Assembly (NCBI GenBank): GCA_948433435.1
Contig: CAOJDX010000002.1
Span: 25,432 to 89,431, forward strand
DNA: 64,000 bases
Source: an uncultured Clostridia bacterium
GTDB lineage: Bacteria > Bacillota_I > Bacilli_A > RF39 > UBA660
Direction of reading: 5' to 3'
The notes beneath the pieces were generated by a model. The model was given only the letters and a program-made list of their open reading frames with translations. It did not search any database and had not been told where the DNA came from. A program made the translations under genes and the position numbers. Each line of letters opens with the position of its first letter. Position 1 is the stretch's first letter. Positions 4,726 through 62,510 of this stretch are shown here, one piece after another.

Positions 4726-5398
4726 AGATGGACTCTCCTATCCCTGTAACATTTTTTAATTCTTCAATGTTTTGGAACTTTCCATGTTCTTCTCGGTAGC
4801 TAATAATGTTTTTGGCTTTTTCGGAGCCAATACCTGCTAATGTTTGTAGCTCTTCTAATGATGCTTCATTAATGGATACTAAATTGCTAAGATTATGATC
4901 TGTAGAGTCTAGTTGCTCATTATTTATACAAGCATTATTGGTAATACCTTCATAGCTATTTTGACAATTTGTTATAATTTGCTGTTCTTTTTCTTTTGTT
5001 TTACTAAAATTACTTACCTGTTCTCTACTATAAATAATGATCACCATTTCATCTGTAATCTTTTTACTAAGATTAATCACAGAGGTATCACCATTTTCAG
5101 TTAAACCTCCTGCAAGTGCTATTACATCACTTACTCTACTTCCCTCCTTTAATGAGTATAACCCTGGGTTTATAATTTCTCCTTTTATATCTACCTTATA
5201 ATCACTTTTCGTATTTTCTTCCTTACTTACCTTTTTTACGCTAGTTGTTTTTTTACTAGAAAGCAGTACTTTATTTTTTTGAGATGGAACTTTTTTCTTT
5301 TTATTTAGCTGATAAATAGAAAAACCTCCTGTCGAAAAGGTTAAAATTAAAAATAGAACTATGGCAATTTGTTTTCGATACCGATAAGTAATAGACAT
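4694..5398 (-). CDS. comEA: Competence protein ComEA (HhH DNA-binding)
   Basis: It has an N-terminal transmembrane segment and a C-terminal helix-hairpin-helix region (ASLEELQTLAGIGSEKAKNII...LKNVTGIGESIFAKIKDYI). It overlaps comEC. Confidence 0.75.
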   Translation of the reverse strand: MSITYRYRKQIAIVLFLILTFSTGGFSIYQLNKKKKVPSQKNKVLLSSKKTTSVKKVSKEENTKSDYKVDIKGEIINPGLYSLKEGSRVSDVIALAGGLTENGDTSVINLSKKITDEMVIIIYSREQVSNFSKTKEKEQQIITNCQNSYEGITNNACINNEQLDSTDHNLSNLVSINEASLEELQTLAGIGSEKAKNIISYREEHGKFQNIEELKNVTGIGESIFAKIKDYITL

Positions 5399-55683: not shown

Positions 55684-56805
55684 ATGTTGGGTGTAATCAA
55701 TGTTCGAGATAAAAGATCGAACAATTTAAGTAAGGTTTACGGAGTAAGACGTTCCCTAGCTTCTTCTTCGTCAGCCTGGGAAAGAATTGAGGACGCTGTA
55801 GGTTTAGTAGCTAACGCACAAGTGGGAACAACTGCTGTAAGAAATGATTTCGATAGTATTTACCCATGGAGCGATATAATTACTTGTAATTATAATAATT
55901 CTACTAAAAAAGTAACCGCTTACTATGGCGACGCTAATTTCTCATTTACTGGAGGTACTAACATACAAGTTATGACTATTATTCCAGAGTTTTATTACAG
56001 ACGTTATATTTCCGACGGTTACGAATATATCTTTATTTCTAAAGACAATTTAAGTGGCTTTATTAAGAGTAAAGAATTTATGATCGGACGTTATACAATG
56101 TCTGGTACTTCTTCTGGAGTATATAGTCGTAGCGGACAAGCTCCATTTACTAACCACACTATCGCAGAGTTTAGGCAATATGCTAAAAACTTGGGCCCTG
56201 GCTGGAGTCAATTAGACTGGCATTATTTCTTAATACAGCTACTTTATTTAGTAGAATATGCAGACTATAATATTCAGTCTAAAATTGGACCAGGACATAC
56301 TAACGCTAATAATACAGCACCTAAAAATAGCGGTGGCTGTAATGCTTTAGGTATGAAATCTGGTTGTATGGTTAAAAATGATACGAACTCTGTTGTTTAT
56401 AGAGGTATCGAAGATTTATACGGTAATGTATGGCAATTTTTCGACGGTCTTAATATAAATAACTATCAAGCTTATATCAATTATAACCCTAGTACCTACG
56501 CTTCTGATGTGTTCGACGGAGATTATCATAAGTTAGGCTATGTTAATAGTTCTACAAGTAGTAGTTATATAACCTCTTTAGGTTATGATCCTAAAAACCC
56601 TTTAGTAGGTCTTCCTACTGATGTAAACGGTAGTAGTAATACTTATATGTGTGATTATTATTGGACTCAAAGCGGAGAACGAATAGCTCTTGTCGGCGGT
56701 GCTTGGAATAACGCATTTCATGCGGGGTTGTGGTGTTGGATCTTTTACGAGGCGTCTTCTGCTTATGGCGTGGGCGTCGGAGCTCGACTTCTTAAAACCA
56801 GTTAG
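55684..56805 (+). CDS. DGR target: receptor-binding tail fibre with C-terminal variable region
   Basis: Its last ~35 codons are the VR (ALVGGAWNNAFHAGLWCWIFYEASSAYGVGVGARLL). This region is homologous to the downstream TR, as expected for a C-type-lectin-fold DGR target. Confidence 0.7.
   Translation: MLGVINVRDKRSNNLSKVYGVRRSLASSSSAWERIEDAVGLVANAQVGTTAVRNDFDSIYPWSDIITCNYNNSTKKVTAYYGDANFSFTGGTNIQVMTIIPEFYYRRYISDGYEYIFISKDNLSGFIKSKEFMIGRYTMSGTSSGVYSRSGQAPFTNHTIAEFRQYAKNLGPGWSQLDWHYFLIQLLYLVEYADYNIQSKIGPGHTNANNTAPKNSGGCNALGMKSGCMVKNDTNSVVYRGIEDLYGNVWQFFDGLNINNYQAYINYNPSTYASDVFDGDYHKLGYVNSSTSSSYITSLGYDPKNPLVGLPTDVNGSSNTYMCDYYWTQSGERIALVGGAWNNAFHAGLWCWIFYEASSAYGVGVGARLLKTS
56687..56795 (+). repeat. 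DGR variable region (VR)
   Basis: It is the 3' end of the tail-fibre ORF. From ttgtgg to cgacttctta it is identical to the TR except where the TR has A. Confidence 0.7.
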
Positions 56806-56933
56806 CGGGGGTTTGGGGGCGGCCAGCCTCCCATAAATAAAAAATTAAATTACCGACTGAAAGTCGGCGACGCTCCATTTTAAAATTTGGGGAAATGGTG
56901 TGTGCGCTTCGGTCGTTCTTGTCCTTTTGAGAG

Positions 56934-57363
56934 CTCTTGTCGGCGGTAGGTGGAACAATGCTCTTAATTGTGGCTTGTGGTATTGGAATTACAACAACGC
57001 GTCTGCTGATTACAGTATCAACGTCGGAGCTCGACCACTTATATTAAGATTAGGGATTTGATGTGTATGCTTCGGTTTGTGATTACTGCTCTTGTCGGCG
57101 GTAATTGGTACGAGCACACTCGCGCTGGCTTGTGGTGTGTTACGCTTAACAACCTAGCGTCTAACGTGAACTCTACGATCGGAGCTCGACCACTTGTATT
57201 AAAAATAGGGATCTGGTGTGTATGTTTCGTTGTTTATGACCGTCTACTCTTGTCGGCGGTTGTTATGTCGACCACCTTATGTGTGGCTTGTGGTATTGGA
57301 ATTGTAATCAAGCGTCTTCTATCGCATGGACTAACGACGGAGCTCGACCACTTGTATTAAAAA
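56934..57363 (+). repeat. Three tandem VR/TR-like cassettes (R2 56934-57046, R3 57089-57201, R4 57247-57360), period ~157 bp
   Basis: Each cassette starts with ctcttgtcggcggt and ends with cggagctcgaccactt(a/g)tattaa. Each is an in-frame alternative ALVGG...GLWxW...GARPL module. Confidence 0.75.
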
Positions 57364-57404
57364 TATGGGATCTGGTGTGTGTGCTTTGATGTTGACGCTT
57401 GCTG

Positions 57405-57512
57405 CTCTTGTCGGCGGTAATTGGACTAACAATACTAGATGTGGCTTGTGGTATTGGAACTTTAACGAGGCGTCTTCTGCTTATAACGTGAACGTCGGAG
57501 CTCGACTACTTA
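57405..57512 (+). repeat. DGR template repeat (TR)
   Basis: It is the last cassette, about 125 bp upstream of the RT gene. All nine 3'-region mismatches to the VR are TR adenines. Confidence 0.7.
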
Positions 57513-57637
57513 TCATTAAATTCCTTACACATCATTTTCCTTAGCGCTTGCTAAAAATTAGTCGTTCTGGGTGGGTTTAGTAGGTTTATTCTCGAAAAAC
57601 TCGCAGGCAAATATAAAAATTATAAGGACCAGGAAAT

Positions 57638-58702
57638 ATGAAAAGAACAGGTAACATTTATCAAAAAATCATAGAATTAAGCAATATTGAAGCAGCTATT
57701 TATAAAGCTAGCAAAGGTAAAGGAAATCGTAAGAGTGTTGAAAAAATACTCGACTCTCCTACATATTACGCTTTACAGATACAAAAAGCATTACAAAATA
57801 AAACGTACAGGCCTAGTCCATACGTTGAAATGAAAATACACGACGGAGCTAATAAGAAGGAACGTATTATTTATAAACCACACTTCTACCCAGATCAGAT
57901 AGTACACTGGGCGTTAATGCTTCAATTAGAGCCTTTACTTATGAAAGGTATGTATGAGTTTTGCTGCGCTAGTGTTAAAGACCGCGGTATTATGCGTGGT
58001 ATGAGACATATTAAAAAGATCTTAGTACAAGATCGTAAGTATACTAAATATTGTTTAAAGCTTGATATTAAGAAGTTTTACCCTAGTATTGATAAGCAGA
58101 TACTGAAAAATAAATTTCGTAGGATCTTAAAAGACAAAGATACTCTTAATCTTATAGACCTTATTATTGATAGTGGTATCGAAGGTATACCTATCGGAAA
58201 TTTCACGAGTCAATGGTTTGCGAATTTTTATTTACAGGATCTCGATCATTTTATAAAAGAACACTTAAAAGTAAAATATTACGTGCGTTATATGGACGAT
58301 ATGGTATTATTTTCTAACAACAAAAAAGAATTACGAAAAATCAAAATAGAAATCGACAATTTTCTAAGTAAAGAAAAGCTAACGATAAAAGAAAATTGGC
58401 AGCTTTTCAAAACTGAGTCTAGGCCTCTTGATTTCTTAGGTTATCGCTTCTATCGTGGGTATACTACTCTTAGAAGAAGTAATTTCTTAAGAATTAAGAG
58501 GCGTGCGAAGAAAATGAGTAAGAAAGATCACATAACTTTCCACGACGCCGCAGCTATGATTAGTTATAGCGGCTGGCTAAAACATTGTAACTCTTATAAT
58601 TATCAACAGAAGTACATAAAACCGTATGTAAATTATAAATTGTGTAAGGAGGTTATAAGAAATGAAAGTAAAAAAGACAGAAAGCACAATAAGACCACTT
58701 AA
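57638..58702 (+). CDS. DGR reverse transcriptase
   Basis: It has the RT motifs including YVRYMDDMVLF (YxDD) and the DGR-specific IPIGNFTSQWFANFYL (I/LGxxxSQ), which closely resembles the bRT of Bordetella phage BPP-1. Confidence 0.9.
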   Translation: MKRTGNIYQKIIELSNIEAAIYKASKGKGNRKSVEKILDSPTYYALQIQKALQNKTYRPSPYVEMKIHDGANKKERIIYKPHFYPDQIVHWALMLQLEPLLMKGMYEFCCASVKDRGIMRGMRHIKKILVQDRKYTKYCLKLDIKKFYPSIDKQILKNKFRRILKDKDTLNLIDLIIDSGIEGIPIGNFTSQWFANFYLQDLDHFIKEHLKVKYYVRYMDDMVLFSNNKKELRKIKIEIDNFLSKEKLTIKENWQLFKTESRPLDFLGYRFYRGYTTLRRSNFLRIKRRAKKMSKKDHITFHDAAAMISYSGWLKHCNSYNYQQKYIKPYVNYKLCKEVIRNESKKDRKHNKTT

Positions 58703-59186
58703 CTTTAAAATTGGCGATCACAAAGGCAACCTTATAGAGGTTGTTTTTTTTGACGACATAGAAGAAGTTATAAGGACATCAGAAGACGGAACAGAACAAA
58801 CGGTATATCTTTATTATGAGTACACTATCAAAATAGTTAATAGAAGTGATTTAGAGTCTTATATAAACGAAAACTATGAGACATGGCTACAAATGGCTAA
58901 AGATAACTTTATCGCTTCTAAATCAGCAGAAATAAGAGCAATAAGAGACAAATTACTCGCTGATAGCGACAAACACGTCCTTATTGATAGATTAGGTATT
59001 GAAATACCAGAAACAATTAACGCCGCCACTATGTTAACTGTTATCAAAGATCTATTTAGTTCTCTTGGTAATATCTTAAATGGAGACTGGTCTACTTATA
59101 GACAGGCTTTAAGAGATATTACTAAACAGCCTAACTTCCCATTTGACGTAGATTTTCCTACAATACCTGGAGAAAATAAAGAATAA
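58662..59186 (+). CDS. Hypothetical phage protein
   Basis: It is an ORF downstream of the RT. It is not Avd-like. Confidence 0.4.
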   Translation: MKVKKTESTIRPLNFKIGDHKGNLIEVVFFDDIEEVIRTSEDGTEQTVYLYYEYTIKIVNRSDLESYINENYETWLQMAKDNFIASKSAEIRAIRDKLLADSDKHVLIDRLGIEIPETINAATMLTVIKDLFSSLGNILNGDWSTYRQALRDITKQPNFPFDVDFPTIPGENKE

Positions 59187-60903: not shown

Positions 60904-61110
60904 TTATTGTGTCAATTCTTCTGTGCCAATATCCGTAAGTAGGGCTCTTCCCTGATTATCAGGCATAGTATAGCGTTGATTTAGATAACGAAGTGCCGCA
61001 GCAAGTTCTCCATTAGCACCACCATACTGTGTCACTAATATTTTAGCCATTTTTAAGTTTTTCTTTTTAATATTAACTGGATATTGTAATCTCTTTTCAT
61101 ATGCCCACAT
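60904..61110 (-). pseudogene. cotJC: cotJC 5' fragment (N-terminal 65 aa, premature stop in prophage end)
   Basis: MWAYEKRLQYPVNIKK...GGANGELAAALRYLNQRYTMPDNQGRALLTDIGTEEL matches the CotJC N-terminus and then runs into TQ* inside the phage arm. Confidence 0.8.
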
Positions 61111-61508
61111 TATTTACTACCTCCCTCAAATGGCCAAGCATCTACTTCCCATAAAAATGGGCTAGCATCTAATGAATCGCTATTAACAGTAATTGGTCCA
61201 TATTTTGTTTCGTATTCATCAATAAGTGAATTGGTTTTTCTACGATAATCGTTAAAAAGAGTTAACACAGATTCATCATTTGGATGTAGATCTAAATATA
61301 AATTAAGTTCATGACTAGCAAAACTAACTGCACTTAATTCTAATAATAATTTGCTTTGTTCATCTTTAGCTCTTAAAATAACTGGTTGATAATTCTTATA
61401 TTGGTCATAAAGTTCTGGAAATAAATTTCCTTTCATATATCCTTCTTCTGGTGAATATAAACTGACTGCCCTATTCCCACTTTGATCGTTCAAATTATAA
61501 TTATACAT
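61110..61508 (-). CDS. CotJA/CotJB-like spore coat-associated protein (apparent fusion)
   Basis: Its C-terminal ELNLYLDLHPNDESVLTLFNDYRRK matches CotJB. Its N-terminal GYMKGNLFPELYDQY resembles CotJA. It lies immediately upstream of cotJC. Confidence 0.55.
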   Translation of the reverse strand: MYNYNLNDQSGNRAVSLYSPEEGYMKGNLFPELYDQYKNYQPVILRAKDEQSKLLLELSAVSFASHELNLYLDLHPNDESVLTLFNDYRRKTNSLIDEYETKYGPITVNSDSLDASPFLWEVDAWPFEGGSK

Positions 61509-61559: not shown

Positions 61560-62510
61560 TTAGTATACTAGACTAATTACATAAAATAAATAAATCACTA
61601 GAAATAAAATTCCTTCTTTTCTAGTCATTTTTTTCTTCTCCCCTATTAATGGATAAATAGAGAAGATAATAGTTGAAAACAATAAAAGCAGCATATCTTT
61701 ATTGTATGAAGAAGCATATTGAATAGGATTAATAAAGGCGGCAAGGCCTATAATTAAAAGTATATTAAAAATATTTGATCCTATTATATTCCCAATTGCC
61801 ATTTCTATTTCTCCCCTTCTGGTAGCAGAAACAGAGGTAATTAGTTCAGGTAGACTAGTACTAAAGGCCACTAAAGTTAAACTAATGATTTTTTCACTAA
61901 TTCCTAAATAAGAGGCAATTAAACTAACATTATCAACTACTAAATCTCCACCTATTTTTAAAGAAATAATTCCTATGATAATACCACTGATAGAAAAAAG
62001 AATATTTTTTCTTTTAGAATCTCTTTCTATCTTAGTGTCATTATTTTTATGAATTGCCATATATAAATTATATATTATAAATAAAAAGGCAAAACTAAGA
62101 AGAAGTATCCCCTCACTTCTAGTAATCATATTCATTTTCCCTTCTACACAATTGATTCCTAGAAATGAAAGTAAGAAAGTGGTAAATATCATAAATATGT
62201 TTTCATATTTAATGGTTTCTTTGGTAAAAATTAAAGGTTTGATTATGGCACATAGTCCAAGAATTAATAATAAGTTAGTGATGTTACTGCCTACAATATT
62301 TCCTATGGCAATATCGGAGTGATTTTCTATAGCGGCCTTAGTACTAACAACAAGTTCGGGTAGACTAGTCCCGATTGCTACAATGGTCATCCCAATAACT
62401 ATTGTAGGAATATTTAATCGTTTTGCTATATCACTTGATCCATCTACTAAAAAATCAGATCCCTTCACAAGAAGAAAAAAACCAAATAATACTAAAATGA
62501 AACAAATCAT
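61560..62510 (-). CDS. Ca2+/cation antiporter (CaCA, YrbG-like)
   Basis: It has two alpha-repeats (GTSLPELVVS, STSLPELITS) and about 10 transmembrane segments. Confidence 0.8.
   Translation of the reverse strand: MICFILVLFGFFLLVKGSDFLVDGSSDIAKRLNIPTIVIGMTIVAIGTSLPELVVSTKAAIENHSDIAIGNIVGSNITNLLLILGLCAIIKPLIFTKETIKYENIFMIFTTFLLSFLGINCVEGKMNMITRSEGILLLSFAFLFIIYNLYMAIHKNNDTKIERDSKRKNILFSISGIIIGIISLKIGGDLVVDNVSLIASYLGISEKIISLTLVAFSTSLPELITSVSATRRGEIEMAIGNIIGSNIFNILLIIGLAAFINPIQYASSYNKDMLLLLFSTIIFSIYPLIGEKKKMTRKEGILFLVIYLFYVISLVY

Follow-up and report, generated by a model that had tools for sequence, protein, structure and literature searches.

Can a single reverse transcriptase (RT) diversify one gene from several alternative templates? 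The question is raised by a diversity-generating retroelement (DGR) in a stretch of 64,000 nucleotides (nt) of DNA, here called the window, from an uncultured Clostridia bacterium (GTDB lineage Bacteria; Bacillota_I; Bacilli_A; RF39; UBA660; assembly GCA_948433435.1, contig CAOJDX010000002.1, positions 25,432 to 89,431 of the forward strand). DGRs are understood and engineered as one template combined with one or more targets, with changes confined to the adenines of the template. An earlier note on the window had described one variable region (VR) paired with one template repeat (TR). The repeat that it named is a TR, but four template units are present, and the picture of a single pair did not hold. 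From sequence comparison we conclude that this prophage DGR probably uses an array of four template units, and not a single TR, to rewrite the last 36 codons of a tail-fibre-like gene. Its central features, including a VR end that resembles an initiation of mutagenic homing (IMH) element, are as follows.

55684–56805, forward strand: target gene, encoding the variable protein of 373 amino acids; within the tail module it follows the tape-measure, Dit-like and Sipho_Gp37 genes
56686–56794, forward strand: VR, the final 36 target codons, with 12 adenines in 108 nt versus 21–24 in the template units
56686–56727, forward strand: VR positions 1–42, without a resident donor unit, matching the template type found in the related loci L107 and L170
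56728–56788, forward strand: VR positions 43–103, a copy of unit c4 with seven substitutions, each at a c4 adenine
56778–56833, forward strand: IMH-like VR end CGGAGCTCGACTTCTTA, with a fixed T at position 105, and conserved GC-rich hairpin GGGGGTTTGGGGGCGGCCAGCCTCCC, 3′ of the VR only
56933–57041, forward strand: template unit c1, 24 adenines, open in the VR frame (ALVGGRWNNALNCGLWYWNYNNASADYSINVGARPL)
57088–57196, forward strand: template unit c2, 21 adenines, open in the VR frame
57246–57354, forward strand: template unit c3, 21 adenines, open in the VR frame and serving close relatives as a template
57404–57512, forward strand: template unit c4, the RT-proximal unit and the TR of the earlier note, 24 adenines, open in the VR frame
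57513–57637, forward strand: spacer of 125 nt between the last unit and the RT gene, with the RNA motif RT-18 (RF03021) at 57542–57618
57638–58702, forward strand: DGR reverse transcriptase, 354 amino acids

The VR and the four tandem units form five in-register repeat copies with a period of 155–159 nt, and a search of the window for further VRs or remote targets found the conserved 5′ and 3′ blocks only at these five copies. VR and c4 align without a gap, and the coordinates proposed earlier for them (56687–56795 and 57405–57512) were accurate to within 1 nt. Between positions 43 and 108 (TTGTGG to CTTA) the two differ at eight sites, not at nine as first counted, in the six clusters that had been noticed (50, 56, 61, 82–83, 88–89 and 105). 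All eight mismatches fall on c4 adenines, which occupy 14 of these 66 nt (hypergeometric P = 5.2e-7), and tabulation by TR base gives zero mismatches at C, G or T, as the claim of an adenine-only pattern required. The letters of the four examples quoted in its support (gtggtAttgg versus gtggtGttgg, tatAAcgtg versus tatGGcgtg, gtgAAcgtc versus gtgGGcgtc, gacTAc versus gacTTc) are all correct, but the last should not be read as a mutation. All 20 related VRs have T at position 105, whether the template unit carries CCA, CTA or CTT, and the site marks a fixed difference between VR and TR in the IMH-like end rather than a mutagenesis event. Because this position is excluded, the informative substitutions number seven among the 13 TR adenines of positions 43–103. 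Over that segment c4 leaves no non-adenine mismatch, while the next best unit in any locus leaves seven.

The 5′ part of the VR has a different history. Positions 16–42 hold 15 mismatches to c4, seven at adenines and eight at C, G or T, with no adenine bias (P = 0.23), in agreement with the observation in the earlier note that the first 35 or so nucleotides differ at non-adenine positions too. Two explanations had been offered there, a 5′ crossover near TTGTGG and older divergence. The crossover is the better of the two, and older divergence the less apt, since VR positions 1–42 fit a real template type, that of L107 and L170, with one non-adenine and one adenine mismatch; in L170 this type is the RT-proximal unit of an array. 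Units c1, c2 and c3 were considered as sources of the 5′ part and rejected, each giving at least 12 mismatches, mostly at non-adenine positions. Because positions 43–103 come from c4 while positions 1–42 match a type now present only in relatives, the VR of the window is a mosaic with its junction in the central block, and its 5′ donor is missing from the current array. Mosaic VRs of relatives break in the same conserved block. Mutagenic homing as such, which had been proposed for this locus, is borne out by the adenine-specific differences beside a DGR-type RT and by near-identical phages that carry different VR alleles. One sequence gives no date for homing, so that the word ‘recent’ is not established.

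RT scans found 160 related loci. Relatives with an RT at least 75% identical to that of the window carry a VR and 1–10 units, as counted with a unit profile, and more distant relatives carry a VR and one TR. For each locus the template path was taken as the unit, or succession of units, that gives the fewest non-adenine mismatches, with a penalty for each switch and with the last six nucleotides excluded; locus L008, whose first copy aligns poorly, was left out of the final tally of 21 loci. Along the best paths, 171 mismatches fall at template adenines and 34 elsewhere, and when C, G or T was made the free base instead, merely 16–23 of about 200 mismatches fell at that base. The RT-proximal unit alone accounts for the VR in four of the 21 loci (the window, L001, L010 and L161), a single internal unit does so in 11, and in six the VR is a mosaic of two units joined in a conserved block. 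Seven VRs show no non-adenine mismatch at all to their best path: L087 (13 adenine differences), L103 (12), L106 (8), L004, L005, L096 and L165. These alignments show VRs of relatives that read as adenine-mutagenised copies of internal units and of unit pairs; that internal units are reverse-transcribed within an intact array, and how they are primed there, we infer from them.

Orthologous units are 98–100% conserved between loci while the VRs differ. L001, L083 and L084 have identical orthologous units, yet the VR derives from u8 in the first, from u6 plus u5 in the second and from u7 in the third. The comparison of VR alleles among related prophages that had been suggested earlier is telling for L088 and L089: their seven units are 100% identical, and each of the three sites that distinguish their VRs is an adenine of the internal unit u6. 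Near-identical elements with VR alleles that differ at template-adenine sites point to diversification that is ongoing. The 90%-identity protein cluster of the target has 232 members with diverse C-termini.

The main rival to a set of alternative templates is rotation: only the RT-proximal unit would be copied, recombination (unequal crossing-over, deletion and duplication) would rotate cassettes through that slot, and VRs that match internal units would be leftovers. The arrays are indeed mobile enough for this, with 1–10 copies among close relatives and with hybrid units in L165 (u3) and L163 (u2), and the RT-18 spacer stands 3′ of the last unit only. Rotation is nevertheless hard to reconcile with the 17 of 21 loci in which the template unit is internal and the downstream units are intact, because a deletion that brought such a unit to the spacer would destroy the later ones. 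It is also hard to reconcile with L088 and L089, identical arrays of seven units whose VRs have diverged at the adenines of an internal unit, and mosaics occur in both orders (c3 followed by c4 in L162, u4 followed by u3 in L165). We consider rotation unlikely.

The window’s own lineage, defined by targets at least 95% identical (95–100% at the N-terminus), illustrates both the use and the turnover of the array. L161 has six units, the last four of which are c1–c4; c3 and c4 are identical to those of the window (c4 being u6, 100%) and the c1 orthologue has one difference. The VR of L162 joins c3 (5′) to c4 (3′) with seven changes, all at adenines, that of L165 joins u4 (5′) to u3 (3′, of c3 type) with ten changes, again all at adenines, and P0129 carries a c3-type VR. 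Copy number ranges from one to six among these closest relatives. In L165 the unit u3 (5057–5165) is a hybrid of a c2 5′ half and a c3 3′ half, and in L163 the unit u2 (4899–5007) has acquired the 3′ end of the last unit and adjoins the spacer, while L164, from another sample, has the same VR as L163 and further units in its array. Taken together, these comparisons are evidence that arrays contract by recombination at conserved blocks, and show that they gain, lose and fuse units. Two loci closest to the window by target N-terminus (100% over 328 amino acids), L167 (1655–2001) and L168 (1312–1658), have a single adenine-poor template that resembles a former VR, and their VRs differ from it at three adenine sites only. 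It appears that an array can shrink to a single unit, and VR-like sequence may overwrite a TR. The protein P0006, a target variant of 380 amino acids, ends ...GARLLIIKFLTHHFP, where the VR is joined to the sequence after the last unit (window 57507–57544); this is either a VR-by-TR deletion that removed the whole array or a misassembly.

The units themselves bear on a simpler alternative, a canonical single-TR DGR in which c4 alone feeds the VR, c1–c3 are inert, decaying duplicates and the divergence of the VR 5′ part is drift. In the window taken alone, an adenine-specific relation to the VR exists only for c4, as such a DGR would predict, and no c1- or c2-derived VR was found among the relatives examined. 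Three blocks of 9–20 nt are common to the four units, the 5′ block (CTCTTGTCGGCGG), the central block (TGTGGCTTGTGGT) and the 3′ block (CGGAGCTCGAC), and outside them the units are 60–78% identical to one another; in the window they differ pairwise at 24–43 of 108 positions, and these differences are not concentrated at adenines. In contrast to what decay would leave, the VR frame is open in 91 of 92 distinct units, versus 51 and 3 units for the other two frames, and their adenines are placed as in a TR (0.31, 0.29 and 0.06 at codon positions 1, 2 and 3), with a mean of 3.8 AAY codons per unit versus 1.0 per VR. Internal and RT-proximal units are similarly rich in adenine (16.4 versus 18.5). 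Open frame and adenine placement together mark the units as probable working templates rather than decaying duplicates. The conservation of orthologous units beside differing VRs also speaks against a single TR, as do the internal templates of 17 of the 21 loci (with c3 used in L162 and P0129) and the fit of the VR 5′ part to a real template type rather than to a drifted c4. This alternative is therefore very unlikely. That the units are themselves targets of mutagenesis was considered and rejected: adenine is involved in just 28 of 58 differences between near-identical orthologous units.

Two further explanations were weighed. Arrays and mosaic VRs could be assembly artefacts of mixed phage populations, in the form of collapsed or chimeric repeats. 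Most loci were indeed assembled from short-read metagenomes, and VRs vary within samples; L163 and L164 combine the same VR with different arrays, and P0006 resembles a fusion of VR and TR. However, the shared blocks of 9–20 nt are shorter than the usual assembly k-mers and the units are about 60–80% identical, the same ordered units recur across independent samples and collections, and chimeras would not give adenine-only mismatches on both sides of a junction; we regard an artefact as highly improbable. Alternatively, silent cassettes could donate to the VR by RecA-type gene conversion, independently of the RT, as in the pilE/pilS system. The tandem, promoterless, partial copies of a 3′ end and the mosaic expressed copies that break in conserved blocks would suit this explanation. 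The differences between VR and donor are adenine-specific (171 versus 34, with controls at 16–23), a pattern foreign to gene conversion and to the faithful, RT-independent copying that defines pilE/pilS-type systems, and a later DGR event from the last unit would overwrite a converted tract. Gene conversion is an extremely improbable source of these VRs.

The remaining components of the locus are those of a DGR. The RT matches Pfam RVT_1 (2.3e-17) and its translation contains the motifs IGNFTSQ (IGxxxSQ, motif 4) and YMDD (YxDD), whereas all scores against the NCBIfam group II, retron and Drt models are far below cut-offs. Its best solved relative is the ‘Reverse transcriptase’ of 328 amino acids in entries 8ub7–8ube (8ub7_A, E 3.6e-34), with group II intron RTs at 2e-11. 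From the length and the entry series we take 8ub7–8ube to be the Bordetella phage bRT, a name that the search output did not give. The target has a C-type-lectin/FGE-like fold, with the VR at its C-terminal end. Related VRs end in CGACTTCTTA in 19 of 20 cases and in CGACTTCTAA in one, and the conserved GC-rich hairpin follows all of them; units end in CCACTTA, CTACTTA or CTTATTA and have no GC-rich hairpin. We read the IMH-like end and hairpin, which are confined to the VR, as the elements that would give the DGR its directionality. The locus is thus a prophage DGR with a bRT-like RT.

In the spacer, the match to Rfam RT-18 reaches 58.7 bits (gathering score 41.3). The core motif of RT-18 is found a single time in the window, and exactly one copy of RT-18 is present in 15 of 15 relatives, always 3′ of the last unit, with compensatory changes visible in the hairpin. 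RT-n RNA motifs adjoin RT genes and have been proposed as DGR spacer RNAs, RT-10 being the spacer of Bordetella phage BPP-1 (PMC5737381). Pairing of the spacer segment TAGTCGTTCTG with the 3′ block of the units was considered as a priming duplex and rejected, being seen in a single-sequence fold only, a fold that gains no stability over shuffled sequences (z = +1.4).

Within a scheme of alternative templates, one unit would be reverse-transcribed with adenine-specific errors, and the cDNA would replace the VR leftwards from its fixed IMH-like 3′ end, with the 5′ junction in a conserved block. The choice of unit would change scaffold residues, and adenine mutagenesis would vary the AAY codons. 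Mosaics of two units could arise by successive partial replacements or by template switches at the central and GCGTCTTCT blocks. In the window, the last event would have copied c4 into VR positions 43–103, leaving positions 1–42 from an earlier event with another template type. Two options exist for priming: the spacer–RT complex might engage the shared 3′ block of any unit, or synthesis might start on the last unit and then switch template within that shared block.

Several points weigh against this scheme. In the Bordetella model the spacer must adjoin the TR for priming, and here RT-18 lies 3′ of the last unit only, which leaves the scheme without an account of how an internal unit would yield cDNA; no covariation supports a pairing of spacer and 3′ block in the alignment of relatives. 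The VRs of the relatives examined include c3 and c4 types but none derived from c1 or c2. Some VRs keep non-adenine mismatches to their best unit, seven in the window when the L170 unit is set aside, seven in L102 and four in L003. Given the recombination seen in the arrays (hybrid units, 1–10 copies), a unit that is now internal may once have sat elsewhere. The support for the scheme is a comparison of assemblies, mostly metagenomic.

The closest well-known counterpart is the DGR of BPP-1 (mtd VR, TR, Sp RNA, bRT and Avd). Both are phage-borne, and in both the VR forms the 3′ end of a gene for a tail-fibre or receptor-binding protein; information flows one way from TR to VR, changes are adenine-specific, and the VR, unlike the TR, has a fixed 3′ end and a hairpin. 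The BPP-1 RT is also the closest solved relative of the RT described here, if entries 8ub7–8ube are indeed bRT. Marker-transfer work on BPP-1 reportedly found a variable 5′ junction of the transferred tract. Unlike BPP-1, with its one TR and RT-10 spacer, the present locus has a tandem series of four units that have diverged from one another (relatives have up to ten), an RT-18 spacer motif and VRs that can be mosaics of two templates, and no avd was found between VR and TR or beside the RT. Between VR and RT only frames that traverse the units exist, and the neighbouring small open reading frames (ORFs) gave no Avd-type Pfam match; the rest of the prophage was not scanned for avd. The lack of a detected avd does not exclude the locus from the DGRs, because DGRs without avd are known (PMC5758913).

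Such avd-less DGRs include architecture E, with the accessory protein CH1 of 160–169 amino acids and an isoelectric point (pI) of about 4.7 (Wu et al. 2018; PMC5758913). Like architecture E, the locus has no avd, HRDC or MSL gene and has a small acidic ORF beside the RT (174 amino acids, pI 4.82), a resemblance to CH1 in size and charge only. This ORF matches Pfam Phage_tail_APC (1.4e-10) and may simply encode a tail-fibre chaperone. It is kept directly 3′ of the RT in L161, L163, L165, L167 and L168, and its product is possibly a DGR accessory factor or a tail-fibre chaperone. It stands with two other features that flank the VR and the units.

56852–56868, forward strand: hairpin CCGACTGAAAGTCGG, which probably terminates the target gene; relatives have a hairpin there too
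56883–56932 (50 nt), 57042–57087, 57197–57245 and 57355–57403: unit leaders, each of about 48 nt (AAAAATAGGGATCTGGTGTGTATG...), conserved and part of the duplicated period
58662–59186, forward strand: acidic ORF, 174 amino acids, sharing 41 nt with the end of the RT gene

The unit leaders are unlike the RT-18 spacer and could be an RNA element, a processing site or what remains of a promoter.

The surroundings have the gene order of a siphovirus tail module: tape measure, Dit-like, Sipho_Gp37, an ORF of 305 amino acids and the target, followed by holin-like ORFs and a GH25-LysM endolysin. The target is likely a receptor-binding or tail-fibre protein. The same variable domain of about 370 amino acids is also fused to other N-terminal modules (prepilin-type PF07963, PF18454, PF12571 and PF10651), and several 90%-identity clusters of target homologues have hundreds to more than 1000 members, as expected for hypervariable proteins. 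A DNA search of a phage collection with the whole cassette gave no match. Directly to the right of the endolysin, the reverse-strand intervals 60904–61508 and 61560–62510 hold ORFs that, judged by sequence alone and not by a family search, resemble spore-coat proteins of the CotJC/CotJB type and, after them, one that resembles a membrane transporter. This arrangement suggests that the prophage ends near 60.8–60.9 kb and that its host is a spore-forming Firmicute.

DGRs with more than one TR per RT have been reported in surveys, and in this respect the locus is like them. It differs in that those were only counted or set aside, and in that the TRs in Stenotrophomonas go with several VRs in different genes. 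In the literature searched, of which coverage is incomplete, we found counts of multiple TRs but nothing that describes alternative TRs arranged in tandem and feeding one VR, or mosaic VRs. Like Neisseria pilE/pilS and Borrelia vlsE, the locus keeps unexpressed, diverged, partial copies beside one expressed copy, and its alleles are mosaics joined at conserved blocks. Unlike in those systems, the transfer bears the adenine signature of a DGR RT, which argues for transfer via RNA and cDNA rather than by DNA recombination. The locus can also be likened to segment choice and hypermutation in vertebrates, where segments are chosen first and point changes follow, giving two layers of diversity; all these likenesses are functional analogies only.

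The adenine-specific relation of VR to TR is ordinary DGR biology; the architecture of the surrounding array is not. With four units here, 1–10 in relatives and internal units as templates, these loci depart from the canonical arrangement of one TR per RT. Programs that look for DGRs and assign to each VR one TR, the nearest or the best, will misinterpret such loci, reporting spurious non-adenine mismatches or discarding the locus, and one survey discarded loci with multiple TRs (PMC11661182). Alternative templates in an array make far more sequence space accessible than adenine sites alone would allow, and they raise the mechanistic question of how a template with no adjoining spacer RNA is primed. 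They also suggest a simple design for multiplexed DGR-based directed evolution. We lean, by a little, towards a two-tier form of diversification in which a single transcript with up to ten template repeats is served by one RT and one spacer RNA, either by long-range positioning of the shared 3′ block of any unit or by template jumping. If this is true, cassette choice and splicing would first change scaffold residues beyond the reach of adenine mutagenesis, and adenine hypermutation would follow. The spacer would then not need to adjoin the template for DGR priming, and these phages would possess a retroelement counterpart of segment choice combined with hypermutation.

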